Assembly (NCBI GenBank): GCA_964390615.1
Contig: CAYMIC010000001.1
Location: 1 to 53,158 of the forward strand
DNA length: 53,158 nt
Reading direction: 5' to 3'
Origin: an uncultured Candidatus Saccharibacteria bacterium
Lineage (GTDB): Bacteria; Patescibacteriota; Minisyncoccia; Phycocordibacterales; UBA9973
The notes beneath the pieces were generated by a model. It saw only the letters and a list, made by a program, of their open reading frames with translations, was not told where the DNA came from and did not search any database. A program made the translations under genes and the position numbers. Shown one piece after another: positions 43,488 to 51,046 of the stretch. Positions within the stretch are counted from its first letter, which is position 1. Each line of letters opens with the position of its first letter.

Positions 43488-45602
<2,115 letters not shown>

Positions 45603-45647: not shown

Positions 45648-46784
45648 ATGCAATACGAAGTAAAAACTGAAGTAGAAAAAGACCTCTTGGCTAAACTCGA
45701 ACCCAAGACAGACGTGCAATCTATGCGCATGAAGAAATATTTGAGTATGCCTGACCTATCTCGCACCCTCGGCAGCCCTATCCACGAGATAGTAGAAAGA
45801 ATACTCACTCAAGAAGATTTTAAAAATTTTGACATCATTAAAGTACCCGAAGTAGTACCGGTGGATGTTAGCTTCGATATTTATGGTTTTGCACCTGATC
45901 ACCCTGCTCGCTCTCCTTCAGACACTTACTTTTTAGATGAAAAAAATATTCTCCGTCCTCATACTACCGTGATGTGGTACTACTACTTGAATCAACCAGA
46001 AGTAAAAGAGCGTATGGCCCGTGGAGAAGCTGTAGGATTTTTCTCTTTTGGGAAAGTTTACCGCAAGGACGAGATAGATCGAAACCATATGAACATCTTT
46101 CACCAAATGGATGGAGGATTCTTAATTCCAAAAAGTAAAAAAGTGATTAGTGTGGAAGATTTACAAAAAGTTCTATCAGATATCGCCAAAGCTGTTTTCG
46201 GTGGAGATATAAAGTATCGTTTCAACCCAGACACCTTCCCTTACACCGACCCATCCCTAGAAATGGAAATAGAAGTCGGCGGCCGTTGGATTGAAGTTCT
46301 CGGTTGTGGCATCATGACTGATAATCTGATTCGAAATCTTGGTCTAAACCCAGAAGAATGGAGTAATTGGGCCTTTGGCTTTGGACTCGAGCGATTAGCT
46401 ATAATCAGCATGGATCTACCAGACATCCGTCTATTTTGGAGCGATGATGAGCGAGTAAAGAAACAGCTCGTACTGGGACAAAAATATCATGAAGTCAGTA
46501 AATTCCCACCAGCAGTACGAGATATTTCTTTTATCGTACCAAAAACTTTTGTGCCAAATGATTATTTCGACTTCGTCCGAGAAACAATCCCAGAAATAGT
46601 CGAACAAGTAGAACTACTAGACAAATATGAAAACGACCAAAAATTTGGTGCCGATAAATTGAGCTACGCCTACCGTATCACCTACCGATCACTCGACAGG
46701 ACACTCACCAGTGAGGAAGTAGAAAAAATCCACAAAAATCTAGAAGCGGAAACAGCAAAAAACTTCGAAGCAACTATTCGTTAG
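45648..46784 (+). CDS. pheS: Phenylalanyl-tRNA synthetase, PheS-type catalytic core fused to a C-terminal FDX-ACB domain (monomeric, mitochondrial-like architecture)
   Basis: 378 aa. Class II motifs ILRPHTT, FSFGKVYRKDEIDRNHMNIFHQMDG and GFGLERLAI. The C-terminal 104 aa, YHEVSKFPPAVRDISFIVP...LLDKYENDQKFGADKLSYAYRITYRSLDRTLTSEEV, match the FDX-ACB pattern at the C-terminus of PheT. There is no N-terminal coiled coil and no adjacent pheT. Confidence 0.8.
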   Translation: MQYEVKTEVEKDLLAKLEPKTDVQSMRMKKYLSMPDLSRTLGSPIHEIVERILTQEDFKNFDIIKVPEVVPVDVSFDIYGFAPDHPARSPSDTYFLDEKNILRPHTTVMWYYYLNQPEVKERMARGEAVGFFSFGKVYRKDEIDRNHMNIFHQMDGGFLIPKSKKVISVEDLQKVLSDIAKAVFGGDIKYRFNPDTFPYTDPSLEMEIEVGGRWIEVLGCGIMTDNLIRNLGLNPEEWSNWAFGFGLERLAIISMDLPDIRLFWSDDERVKKQLVLGQKYHEVSKFPPAVRDISFIVPKTFVPNDYFDFVRETIPEIVEQVELLDKYENDQKFGADKLSYAYRITYRSLDRTLTSEEVEKIHKNLEAETAKNFEATIR

Positions 46785-46797
46785 AAAAGTATTAGTT

Positions 46798-47031
46798 TTA
46801 ACGCGCTAGTTCGTATTCGTTTTCTCCACGACGAATAATTACATATTCGTATGCTCTACCATCAAACATTGCAGTAAAATGAAAATCCCGATCTGGTGCC
46901 CGGTCCGCTGCACTTAGGAGCTCATCTAAGCGGTCGTTGCTTAGGTCCTCTAAATATCGCATACCATCGGGATAGCGATCGTTATCATAAATTTGCACGT
47001 TCTTGTTATAACCCACCATTATTGTAGTCAT
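46798..47031 (-). CDS. Small hypothetical protein
   Basis: 77 aa with an ATG start. It fits the 12-13 nt gaps to both neighbours. No family recognised. Confidence 0.45.
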   Translation of the reverse strand: MTTIMVGYNKNVQIYDNDRYPDGMRYLEDLSNDRLDELLSAADRAPDRDFHFTAMFDGRAYEYVIIRRGENEYELAR

Positions 47032-47043
47032 AAATAAATTATA

Positions 47044-48072
47044 TTATTTCTTATAGTTTTTCTTAAATTGATTATGGTACTTTTGCCTACTAGGACCAAC
47101 CAAAAATTGATTTATTTTCTTTGGAAACTTATCACAGATATGGCAAATCTTGCTACAGTATCCACTGAGTTTGTTTTTACAACCAACACAGCAAATAAAC
47201 AAAACATGGCAAGAATTGTTCTTGCAATGGATATAATCATCACATTTGGTTTTTTCACATACTTGGCAAGTAGCTATAATCTCGTCCCCGACTCTCTCAC
47301 CCATGCGCTCATCAAAAACAAAGTTTTTGCCTTTAAATTTATTCTGTAATCCTTTAGCTTTGACTTGATGAGCGTAATCAATAATTCCTCCCTTGATATG
47401 TTTGACATTCTTAAAACCATTGTGCTTCATCCAAGCTGAAGCTTTTTCGCACCTTATACCACCAGTACAATACAGTAAGACTTCTTCGTCTTTTTTATCT
47501 TTAAACATATCAGTTACTTTCGCTAGTTGTTCTCTAAAAGTATCTACGTTCATCAATTTTGCATTTTCAAAATGGCCGATAGCTGCTTCATACATATTAC
47601 GCATGTCTATCACTGTTACCCCTCTATCAATCATATTATTTACATCCTCCGCTGTGGCATAAGCTCCTGTATCACTCGGATTAAAAGTAGAATCATCTAA
47701 TCCATCAGCAACTATTTTGGGACGAACTTTGATAATTAATTTCAAGAAACTAGACTGTATTCCCTTGCCCTTCTCTTCCACTGCCATCTTGTAAGGCACA
47801 CCAGCAAATTCTTTTGTGTTTTGAATAAACTTATCGAAAGCCTCCCAGTTATGCTCGGGAACATTCATCTGTGCATTTATACCTTCATGAGCAACGTAAA
47901 TACGGCCGAGGCATCCAAGATTCTCAAATTTATCAAATAAAAAATCCCTCATCTCTTTAGGATTTTCTATCTTCACGTATTTATAAAAAGAAAGAGTTTT
48001 GCGTCTGAAATTCTCTTTCTCTAAATCGCGCATTAGCTCCTCTTTAGATTTTGTGTTTACTTTCTTATACAT
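47044..48072 (-). CDS. trhO: tRNA uridine(34) hydroxylase / rhodanese-domain protein (YceA/UPF0176 family)
   Basis: 342 aa. LYCTGGIRCEKASAWMKHNGF, GKNFVFDERMGERV and the Cys-rich C-terminus closely resemble E. coli YceA as I recall it. Confidence 0.88.
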   Translation of the reverse strand: MYKKVNTKSKEELMRDLEKENFRRKTLSFYKYVKIENPKEMRDFLFDKFENLGCLGRIYVAHEGINAQMNVPEHNWEAFDKFIQNTKEFAGVPYKMAVEEKGKGIQSSFLKLIIKVRPKIVADGLDDSTFNPSDTGAYATAEDVNNMIDRGVTVIDMRNMYEAAIGHFENAKLMNVDTFREQLAKVTDMFKDKKDEEVLLYCTGGIRCEKASAWMKHNGFKNVKHIKGGIIDYAHQVKAKGLQNKFKGKNFVFDERMGERVGDEIIATCQVCEKTKCDDYIHCKNNSCHVLFICCVGCKNKLSGYCSKICHICDKFPKKINQFLVGPSRQKYHNQFKKNYKK

Positions 48073-48118: not shown

Positions 48119-51046
48119 TTACTTTTTGTAGATTCTAGCCATCTGGCAATACTCACAAACAGCATTGGATTTACCATAAGATTTGAAATGACATGGGCGG
48201 GTTACCCAAGTACCTGTTTTGAGCATGTTGTCATAGTCAGCAATGTCTCGGACCAACATGTCTATTTTATCTTTATCAATATAGGTTCGGTAAAATGCAT
48301 CTTCTGGATTTTTAGCTTCCAAAAATTCCAAAGTAGATTCTACGACATCTTTTTTCCATTTAGAATTCTCTGATAAAAGATAAGAGTACATAGCCAGCTG
48401 ACGCATGTAGCCATCCATTCTACCCTCGTCATCTATTTTTTCAATATCTCGCTTACTTCTTCCAGAACCTGTTTTAAAATCTGTGACCTTTACTTTGCCA
48501 TCACCACCAACTTCAATCAAATCAACCTTGCCATAGATAGATAAATCTGGATAACGATCATCCGAGAGAGATACCGATTCTTCATTTTTATAATTTTTAG
48601 ATATCTCTTTGTATCTAGTTTTAAACCAATGTTCCGCTATCTTTTTAGCTTTGTTCTGATCAGATTCTTTTAATTTAAAATAATGACTTTCTTCTGGAAC
48701 CTTGCCGGTCTTTAAAATTTCATCTATCGCAGAGTGCACCACATTTCCAAACTCCAAACTCGGAGACTCAGGCTCAGGAAGTTGCAACATATTTCGAAAA
48801 TACCATTTCCAGGGACATTCAAAAAAGTTGTTAAGCATCGACACAGAAACTTTGCGATCCACATAATCTTCCCTCACTAATTCTACCAAACCTGCTAAAT
48901 CAAGCGCCGAGACAGGTAAGACGCTTGACCTAACATAAGAAGCTGGGTCAGTAGTTAAAATTTTATCTTCAGTAGTACTTGCAGTTTCTTTCACCAAATG
49001 AGCATCGATAGCATGGATCACTTGAGCAAGTTCCTGCTCGCCACCAGTATACCCATGCCGAGCATACGATAGAGTGCAAAAGCTCTTGGCTCGAGTAATA
49101 GCAACATATAGCTGGCGTTTCAAGACTTCTTCATCACGTTCATCTGTTTTTTCTTTTATACTACTAGGTAGAGTAAAGCCACCAGAGCGCCCACCAGCGA
49201 GAGATTTTTCATCTAAATGCGCAATCCAAACAAATTCAAACTCAAGCCCTTTAGAAGCGTGCAAAGTCATAACTTTTATCCCCTGATCTCTTTTAAAAAT
49301 TGCGAGTGGAATACTTTCACCATAGTTTTCAATTCGATCCAAGAAAACCATGAAATCTCTAATGGTGATTTTGGAATCTCTTTCAATCTCTGACATGACT
49401 AGATGAAGTACGGTACGGATGACTTCCACCCTCTCGGTTAGCTCAGCATGAGTCTCAGCCTTATCTAAAAATAATTCTGTGCCTACTGTTTGAATGAAAG
49501 AATATAAACTCATCGTAGGAGTCAGATTCAACCATTCTTTCAATTGCAAAAACCAAGTCGTAATTTTATCTTCAGTACTGAAGAGTGTATTACTACTCCC
49601 TGGAATCAAATCTAAAAAATTAAAATCCCTGGTTTTTCTATTTACCAAAAACTTATGAGCAGAGATTGGATCCACTCCTGAAATAGAATCAAACAATGAC
49701 TCGCCCACATACACCCCACTCTCTGGATATGCCAAAATTCGAAGCACGCGAATAAAGGATTGAGCTACCGGTGATTCAAAAAAATCAGTCTTATCTCCTT
49801 CTGAGACTGGTAAACCTAAATCACGCAAAACTGTTATCGCACTACGAACTTGTTTATTTTTAGGAACCAAAATAGCCACTTCTTCAGGATCGATTTTATT
49901 TAAGATTTTTTTTATTTCTAACCCAGCTCGAATAATCTCATCCCTCGGATAATCTGCTTCTACCAACCGAATATCGTTATCTCCTTTTTTATTACTTTTT
50001 AATTTCGCTCCGACTAAAGCACTCGGAAGTAAGGTATGTGAAGAATCTAGAATATTTTGAGTCGAGCGATAATTTTCAATGAGAGTAATCAACTCTGCCT
50101 TACCAAATTCATTTTTAAAATTTTCAAAGTATTCCAAACTAGCTCCACCAAATCCGTAGATCAATTGGCGATCATCCCCCACCACAAAGATGTTCGGTCT
50201 CTCAGCATCCCCCCAAACAGCTTTTAAAAATTGATTCTGCACCCCAGAAGAATCTTGATGTTCATCGATAAGTACATACAAATACTCTTCCTGTATTTCT
50301 TGTTTAGCAGTTTCCGACTCCTCTACAATTTTAACTAAGCTCTCAAGTACATCATCATAGTCGAGGACATTTGTTCTTTCTTTTTCTTGCTCATATATTT
50401 CATAAAATAAAACAGTCTCTCGAGTACGTTCAAGTCCTTCAATCTCTTTGATTATTTCTTTTTTCAGTTCACCTTTACGCGAACCTCGAGAAGACACACT
50501 TAGAGGATCAGTCTTTAACGCTTCGATTTCTTTTTCTATTTCCCTCTCTAGGGAATCTGGGGTTATCCGCTCGCGCTTGAGTACAGAAATTAAACTCTTT
50601 AAATCACGAAAGTATCTAGTACTATCTCCGCGAGGAGAAATATGTTCCCAAGCATTATTTTGCAAAATCTGATCTACCAAGAGTATTGCCCCTTGTTCAT
50701 CAAGTAAATCAGGCTCACTATCCTTATCTAAAACTCGAAAGTATTTTCGCACCATATCCATACCAAAACTATGAAAGGTGGCGACGTTGACTCTACCAGC
50801 TTCTGGACCGATATACGCTCGCAACCGCTCGCGCATAGCTTTTACCCCTGAATTCGTAAAAGTAAGGCAAAGTATACCATCAGCCTTGGTGTCTGTATTC
50901 TTCAAGATATAACCAATACGAAGCGCCAAAACTTGAGTCTTACCAGTACCTGGACCTGCCACCACCATAACCGGACCATCAATAGTATCCACAGCCTGTC
51001 TCTGGGCTTGGTTTAATTTTTTATATTCTTCGTCAAAAGTATACAT
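48119..51046 (-). CDS. UvrD/PcrA-type SF1 helicase fused to a C-terminal PD-(D/E)XK nuclease with four Cys (AddAB/RecB-Cas4-like)
   Basis: 975 aa. Helicase motifs AGPGTGKT, LIDEHQDS, VVGDDRQLIYGF, NYRSTQNI, MTLHASKGLEFEFV and LYVAITRAK. Nuclease motifs GKVDLIEV...VTDFKTG and QLAMYSYLL. Cys ligands FFECPWKWYF ... RPCHF...CEYC. Confidence 0.85.
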   Translation of the reverse strand: MYTFDEEYKKLNQAQRQAVDTIDGPVMVVAGPGTGKTQVLALRIGYILKNTDTKADGILCLTFTNSGVKAMRERLRAYIGPEAGRVNVATFHSFGMDMVRKYFRVLDKDSEPDLLDEQGAILLVDQILQNNAWEHISPRGDSTRYFRDLKSLISVLKRERITPDSLEREIEKEIEALKTDPLSVSSRGSRKGELKKEIIKEIEGLERTRETVLFYEIYEQEKERTNVLDYDDVLESLVKIVEESETAKQEIQEEYLYVLIDEHQDSSGVQNQFLKAVWGDAERPNIFVVGDDRQLIYGFGGASLEYFENFKNEFGKAELITLIENYRSTQNILDSSHTLLPSALVGAKLKSNKKGDNDIRLVEADYPRDEIIRAGLEIKKILNKIDPEEVAILVPKNKQVRSAITVLRDLGLPVSEGDKTDFFESPVAQSFIRVLRILAYPESGVYVGESLFDSISGVDPISAHKFLVNRKTRDFNFLDLIPGSSNTLFSTEDKITTWFLQLKEWLNLTPTMSLYSFIQTVGTELFLDKAETHAELTERVEVIRTVLHLVMSEIERDSKITIRDFMVFLDRIENYGESIPLAIFKRDQGIKVMTLHASKGLEFEFVWIAHLDEKSLAGGRSGGFTLPSSIKEKTDERDEEVLKRQLYVAITRAKSFCTLSYARHGYTGGEQELAQVIHAIDAHLVKETASTTEDKILTTDPASYVRSSVLPVSALDLAGLVELVREDYVDRKVSVSMLNNFFECPWKWYFRNMLQLPEPESPSLEFGNVVHSAIDEILKTGKVPEESHYFKLKESDQNKAKKIAEHWFKTRYKEISKNYKNEESVSLSDDRYPDLSIYGKVDLIEVGGDGKVKVTDFKTGSGRSKRDIEKIDDEGRMDGYMRQLAMYSYLLSENSKWKKDVVESTLEFLEAKNPEDAFYRTYIDKDKIDMLVRDIADYDNMLKTGTWVTRPCHFKSYGKSNAVCEYCQMARIYKK

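Follow-up and report, generated by a model that had tools for sequence, protein, structure and literature searches.

A mitochondrial-type single-chain phenylalanyl-tRNA synthetase gene next to gyrB in a Minisyncoccia genome

The window analyzed here is a 53,158-nucleotide stretch from an uncultured bacterium of the class Minisyncoccia. A gene in it very probably encodes the only phenylalanyl-tRNA synthetase (PheRS) of the cell. The product is a bacterial counterpart of the mitochondrial enzyme (PheRS-M; FARS2 in human), probably acts as a monomer, and appears to have replaced a resident pheS–pheT pair in place. The gene and its two domains are as follows.

45648..46784, plus strand: single-chain PheRS gene (ORF list; Pfam, NCBIfam, and PDB matches; AlphaFold model)
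45777..46466, plus strand: tRNA-synt_2d class IIc catalytic core, aa 44–273 (Pfam, E 9e-50)
46497..46781, plus strand: FDX-ACB (PheT B8-type) anticodon-binding domain, aa 284–378 (Pfam, E 7.3e-22)

Domain architecture

The open reading frame at 45648–46784 is intact, begins with ATG, and encodes 378 amino acids plus a stop codon. The original prediction from the nucleotide sequence was that a PheS core and an FDX-ACB domain are joined in this one protein. The Pfam scan bore this out by detecting both domains, with a score of 78 bits for FDX-ACB (cut-off, 31). In the alignment with Escherichia coli PheS, aa 4–274 are paired with residues 62–326 of 327 (31% identity). The N-terminal ~60 residues of E. 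coli PheS, which form the coiled coil according to a 2010 review (PMC3275996), have no counterpart, in line with the predicted lack of an N-terminal coiled coil, and the catalytic core ends at the point where E. coli PheS ends. The remainder (aa 279–378) is aligned with residues 696–794 of 795 of E. coli PheT (27% identity), and no other part of PheT is aligned. The bacterial PheT model gave the same picture: only positions 694–798 of 798, the last 105, match aa 273–378, which agrees with the ~104-aa FDX-ACB segment predicted to start at nt 46470. Judged from these alignments, the window protein is a PheS without its first ~60 residues, continued by a short linker and then by the C-terminal PheT domain.

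The Pfam E-values of the protein are far beyond chance. Among the NCBIfam models, the highest score was obtained with TIGR00469 (pheS_mito, mitochondrial PheRS; 232 bits, below the cut-off of 258.35). NF051887 ("PheS-related mystery ligase SrmL") came second, aligned to aa 49–367 with 231 bits (below the cut-off of 300), followed by TIGR00468 (bacterial PheS; 148 bits, below the cut-off of 237.45) and the end of the PheT model. The best sequence matches in the PDB are the entries of human mitochondrial PheRS (E 3.1e-59 to 1.2e-57). Bacterial PheS chains are weaker (E from 2.8e-36); for PheT chains, the match is confined to the C-terminal ~100 residues (E 1.8e-5 at best).

Predicted structure and active-site residues

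For structure prediction with AlphaFold2, 38 sequences of the fused family were aligned, and the resulting model has a mean pLDDT of 92.8 and a pTM of 0.89. In the Foldseek search, human mitochondrial PheRS entries ranked at the top, and bacterial PheS chains matched only the core of the model. The model was superimposed on the closed form of the human mitochondrial enzyme (3CMQ) over both domains, with a TM score of 0.78 and an rmsd of 3.5 for 388 columns, whereas the open, tRNA-bound form (3TUP) gave a TM score of 0.59 and an rmsd of 19. The model thus adopts the closed two-domain arrangement. The FARS2-like domain organization proposed for this gene was therefore supported by the PDB matches and by the fit of the predicted fold to 3CMQ across both domains.

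Sixteen positions are invariant in the 38 fused-family sequences, including Arg139, Arg249, His147, Pro198, Gly221, and Gly244. We read Arg139 and Arg249 as the probable arginines of motifs 2 and 3, respectively. Ala242, conserved in at least 90% of the same sequences, is located opposite the alanine of the E. coli sequence FAFGMGMERL, which we take to be the pocket-size residue Ala294. Nothing in the sequence suggests that the window protein is a dead enzyme.

PheRS complement of the genome

The assembly containing the window (G000) consists of 48 contigs with 553,416 bases in total, at a completeness of 89%. The domain search of this genome found one tRNA-synt_2d gene; an open frame on contig 17 gave a weak match (E 5.9e-4) under the family cut-off. 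The combination of a normal pheT elsewhere in the genome and a C-terminal segment other than FDX-ACB had been named as evidence against the original prediction, and it was not observed. B3_4 and B5 domains were not found in domain searches of this 89%-complete genome, and the searches for tRNA-synt_2d, B3_4, and B5 were each positive in 14 of 14 control genomes. The PheT model matched only the C terminus of the fused gene and one site on contig 11. A single tRNA-Phe(GAA) was detected by ARAGORN (contig 3, 15513–15586). Because the genome is 89% complete and divided into 48 contigs, a missing pheT in G000 alone is no proof of its absence from the cell.

The site on contig 11 was considered as a relic of pheT and rejected, as it encodes a complete, free-standing tRNA_bind protein of 109 aa (PF01588, E 1.8e-28; L002, 1429–1758, minus strand). 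Its gene adjoins ruvX and a PilM-like gene. The protein is presumably Trbp111/CsaA-like and could be a tRNA-binding helper that assists reduced synthetases in trans.

Position of the gene in the chromosome

The neighboring genes are all encoded on the minus strand.

43488..45584, minus strand: gyrB (Pfam DNA_gyraseB, Toprim, and HATPase_c)
46798..47031, minus strand: 77-aa ORF of no family
47044..48072, minus strand: 342-aa protein with UPF0176_N, Rhodanese, and Rhodanese_C domains and a Cys-rich tail
48119..51046, minus strand: UvrD-like helicase with a PD-(D/E)XK nuclease domain (Pfam)

As predicted, the gene is not followed by pheT, and its neighbor (46798–47031) is on the other strand. The slot in G000 is read as helicase (−), UPF0176/rhodanese (−), small ORF (−), PheRS-M (+), and gyrB (−). 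Three further genomes are labeled as the same genus, with GyrB identities to G000 of 86% (G284), 85% (G498), and 82% (G256); the values for three genomes of the same order are 71–74%. In G498, all five slot genes are present in the same relative order and orientation, and the slot in G284 consists of helicase, PheRS-M, and gyrB only. PheRS-M is thus antisense between the helicase and gyrB in three genomes of the genus (G000, G284, and G498). Contig 18 of G256 encodes, in one direction, the helicase, a 98-aa ORF, pheS, pheT, and gyrB, within which the contig ends. The pheS and pheT products of G256 have 255 and 598 aa, respectively, the latter with B3_4, B5, CLM, and FDX-ACB domains, and the core of the fused protein is 34% identical to G256 PheS. 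In two same-order genomes, pheS–pheT is located one or two genes upstream of gyrB and is codirectional with it.

Since the helicase and gyrB flanks are shared, the fused gene occupies the slot of pheS–pheT and is antisense to it. We read this as an in-place displacement of pheS–pheT by the fused gene within the genus. The most economical reading of these few genomes is that pheS–pheT is the older state in the order and was displaced in the ancestor of G000, G284, and G498, because G256 PheS groups with the PheS of same-order genomes in the final tree described below (99/95) and these genomes keep pheS–pheT near gyrB.

In G000, the helicase gene is separated from the PheRS gene by the UPF0176/rhodanese gene and the 77-aa ORF. 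G498 has both of these intervening genes (its UPF0176/rhodanese protein is 33% identical), and G284 and G256 have neither. We assume that the UPF0176/rhodanese protein is TrhO-like, of a family that hydroxylates tRNA U34.

Distribution among relatives

Among 8000 scored candidate homologues, 6955 were obtained at E ≤ 0.001. The best 120 of these 6955 are all 366–428 aa long and contain both Pfam domains. Where given, the source names among the matches listed are hypothetical proteins of "Paceibacterota" or "Minisyncoccia" (with one of "Nanoarchaeota") or the JGI name "PheRS alpha chain." The nearest Atlas clusters are Minisyncoccota.

In a sample of 301 genomes evenly drawn from the phylum, which includes one unpublished genome (G154, a non-carrier), FDX-ACB was found in 266. 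The open frames with this domain are about 377–411 aa or about 600–950 aa long; a few are shorter, including some located at contig ends. Genomes with a full-length match to the window protein at E ≤ 1e-50 were defined as carriers. G000 included, there are 20 carriers in the phylum sample, which span nine family codes, some labeled as another class. In the class of the window, the fused gene is carried by 68 of 251 genomes (again with G000) and 45 of 189 genera. Several families of the class sample are mixed, with carriers making up, for example, 7/10, 4/6, 2/8, and 1/8 of their genomes.

The B5 domain was found in none of the 19 other carriers of the phylum sample and in one of 63 further class carriers, that is, in 1 of 82 besides G000. 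Most of these 82 genomes are 90–100% complete. All five non-carrier genomes used for comparison have B5; in these, a short pheS (open frames of 247–360 aa) is directly followed by pheT. The near absence of B5 from carriers and its presence in all five non-carriers indicate that the fused gene and pheT are near-exclusive alternatives. Of the 24 genomes checked for PheS-type cores, each has a single one except for G221, where the fused gene is truncated at the end of a contig.

G375 (70 contigs) is the only one of the 82 carriers with both the fused gene and a B5-bearing PheT, and represents either a genuine transitional state or a bin of mixed origin. The two loci in G375 are C57:1577-2686 and L056 (C2:3292-3480), and its fused gene is 48% identical to that of the window.

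Two observations concern the PheRS of other genomes. In family f20 of the phylum sample, an FDX-ACB match was found in 3 of 15 genomes (completeness 84–93% for those listed); their PheRS may be yet another type or may be missed by the FDX-ACB search. The canonical PheRS is also reduced in these CPR genomes (L051, which is G256 contig 18, 4820–7385; L030-L033): PheS is 244–270 aa long and lacks the N-terminal coiled coil, and PheT (~600–690 aa) starts at B3_4 without the B1/B2 region. In a 2017 paper (PMC5370408), B2 is described as absent from many CPR PheT proteins.

Phylogeny of the fused family

A search of 1.84 billion cluster representatives yielded 227 proteins at E ≤ 1e-30. Eighty-one of the 150 listed representatives, mostly near-full-length, were scanned with the family models, and about 70 of the 81 pass the cut-off of the mitochondrial model. 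One of them, P0121, is 60% identical to the window protein and passes TIGR00469 with 264 bits. True SrmL proteins are represented by P0241 and P0250 (402 and 415 bits with NF051887), and P0124–P0127 are intermediates that score highest with the SrmL model yet stay under its cut-off. The named relatives are Tupanvirus in a group of 340–360-aa proteins, Ca. Peribacteria and Gracilibacteria in the P0125 group, and Ca. Saccharibacteria, Saccharimonadales, and Dojkabacteria for SrmL. In model searches, true SrmL was found in 0 of the 301 phylum-sample genomes and 0 of the 14 control genomes.

The final tree, calculated under LG+C20 PMSF with a careful search, is based on an alignment of 53 rows by 369 columns. 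Compared with the first tree of 83 rows, 32 rows (7 carrier loci and 25 clade-B proteins) were removed to keep the careful search feasible, and two SrmL proteins and E. coli PheS were added. It was rooted with an outgroup of five CPR PheS sequences and E. coli PheS. All fused proteins form one clade (100/100) apart from canonical PheS, which indicates that the fusion arose once. The window protein, for which a phylogeny with mitochondrial-type enzymes and PheS had been suggested as a check, fell into this clade and within a subclade of Paceibacteria-type CPR proteins (100/100). Eukaryotic and giant-virus proteins form a subclade of their own (99/96), in which the named rows are Artemisia and Tupanvirus only. 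Because the CPR forms are outside this subclade, they were not recently acquired from eukaryotes or viruses. True SrmL is a very long separate branch within the fused clade. The CPR fused lineages are only weakly united (89/62) and formed an open polytomy in a quick run.

We tentatively consider a broader hypothesis, which we think has less than an even chance of being correct: that the one-chain PheRS was invented in CPR bacteria, that all mitochondrial and giant-virus copies descend from there, and that the two architectures swap in place within a genus. If so, the mitochondrial enzyme would not have originated from an alphaproteobacterial pheS–pheT pair fused after endosymbiosis, and the CPR bacteria would hold four deep lineages, namely, the Paceibacteria type, the G006/P0124 type, the Peribacteria/Gracilibacteria type, and SrmL.

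Proposed function and alternative explanations

Here, we propose how the window protein would function, on the basis of its domains and the human mitochondrial enzyme. The PheS catalytic module would bind Phe and ATP, form Phe-AMP, and transfer Phe to A76 of tRNA-Phe, and the B8/FDX-ACB domain on the same chain would read the GAA anticodon. In the 2010 review, mitochondrial PheRS is described as an active monomer, a chimera of the catalytic module and B8 with a mobile anticodon domain; in its position in the tRNA-free enzyme, this domain would collide with the acceptor stem, and SAXS supports a rearrangement (PMC3275996). By analogy, the window enzyme is probably a monomer, and its anticodon domain may swing from the closed to the open state upon tRNA binding. 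The editing site is placed in B3/B4 of the β subunit by the same text (PMC3275996). As this site is not encoded in the genome, Tyr-tRNA-Phe would not be cleared by this single-chain PheRS. The fused gene would have replaced the resident pheS–pheT at the same position and in the opposite orientation.

The first alternative concerns the oligomeric state. Class II synthetases are normally dimers, and the genome encodes the 109-aa stand-alone tRNA_bind protein; the product could therefore be a PheRS that functions as a homodimer or with such a helper. We regard this as unlikely, given that the nearest relative with a solved structure is described as an active monomer (PMC3275996) and that the model fits the closed monomeric form over both domains.

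It is still less probable that the gene is an accessory paralogue, a "mystery ligase" like SrmL, and that the real pheS–pheT is in the unassembled ~11% of the genome. The incompleteness of the assembly (89%), the score of 231 bits with the SrmL model, and the joint presence of the fused gene and PheT in G375, where the two forms either co-occur or were binned together, would all suit this explanation, and the name "mystery ligase" shows that curators were unwilling to regard the sister family as an ordinary PheRS. However, B5 was found in only 1 of the 82 other carriers, most of which are 90–100% complete, and the carriers examined have one PheS-type core each. The fused gene occupies the pheS–pheT slot in the genus, and the catalytic residues are conserved. 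These points argue for the reading as the sole PheRS of the cell.

A recent local fusion by deletion within the resident pheS–pheT operon would account for the PheS part ending exactly at the PheS C terminus and for the location in the pheS–pheT slot, but it was rejected as highly improbable, because the core shares only 34% identity with PheS of the sister species G256, a 100/100 branch separates it from all canonical PheS and places it in one clade with the mitochondrial enzymes, and the orientation is opposite to that of pheS–pheT. Contamination with a eukaryotic or giant-virus gene through mis-binning of the contig, which the Tupanvirus and plant proteins in clade B of the family might suggest, has an equally negligible probability, as the gene is inside a 53-kb contig between gyrB and the helicase with like neighbors in three genomes, and the protein is outside the eukaryote and virus clade (99/96).

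Comparison with known systems

The closest system to the window protein is mitochondrial PheRS (human FARS2, 3CMQ/3TUP; yeast MSF1; PheRS-M of AARS Online; TIGR00469). Both have the FDX-ACB (B8) domain fused to the core at the PheS C terminus, are of similar size, and lack the coiled coil, the β subunit, and the B3/B4 editing domain. They also share a junction motif (consensus IPDIRLFWS.DERF), one clade, and the fold. Unlike the mitochondrial enzymes, the window protein is encoded by a bacterium, in which it is the apparent sole cellular PheRS, scores under the TIGR00469 cut-off, and is outside the eukaryote and virus clade. It also lacks an insertion of human mitochondrial PheRS that splits the alignment into two stretches.

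SrmL (NF051887) is bacterial, has the same two-domain layout and CPR members, and belongs to the same fused clade. It differs in its long separate branch and in a function left undeclared by curators, and the window protein scores under its cut-off. The canonical PheS2–PheT2 enzyme (TIGR00468 and TIGR00472) has a homologous catalytic core and FDX-ACB domain and presumably the same tRNA and amino acid, but it consists of two genes and four chains with B1–B7, including the editing site. The giant-virus PheRS (Tupanvirus soda lake, P0328) has the same fused layout in 340–360 aa and differs in belonging to the eukaryote and virus clade, not to the CPR lineages.

The architecture itself is that of a well-known family. 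The 2010 review states that every known prokaryotic species has the conserved heterotetramer and that no class II synthetase other than mitochondrial PheRS is monomeric (PMC3275996). The only structure given for PheRS-M in AARS Online is the human one. Searches of openly available full texts yielded no account of a one-chain PheRS from bacteria or the CPR, nor of SrmL. Neither is mentioned for bacteria in the available portions of PMC5370408, 10.1101/2023.05.29.542759, PMC11580382, PMC6367104, PMC10810186, PMC6744442, PMC13622651, and 10.64898/2026.05.13.725050. The use of this architecture by bacteria was thus not found in print, and the present analysis adds the in-place replacement and the sister-group position.

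A whole bacterial lineage, about a quarter of the sampled genomes of the class, appears to live on a one-chain PheRS. These bacteria provide a sister group for asking about the origin of FARS2. They also suggest that PheRS editing and the β subunit are dispensable in a whole cell as well as in an organelle, a point relevant to minimal translation systems. The slot next to gyrB would be a clear natural case in which a one-gene enzyme took the place of an essential two-gene one. The analysis also explains the "hypothetical protein" labels of such genes in NCBI records, and marker counts based on pheT would probably under-score such genomes.

Other members of the family

Many mitochondrial-type PheRS proteins of 340–360 aa are encoded on contigs of 0.1–1.5 Mb, and P0328 among them is from Tupanvirus soda lake; the one-chain PheRS seems to be widespread in giant viruses. 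P0186 (872 aa) combines an AlaRS-like N-terminal part (TIGR00344, positions 123–417) with a full mitochondrial-type PheRS, and may be either a fusion or an artefact of assembly or gene calling.
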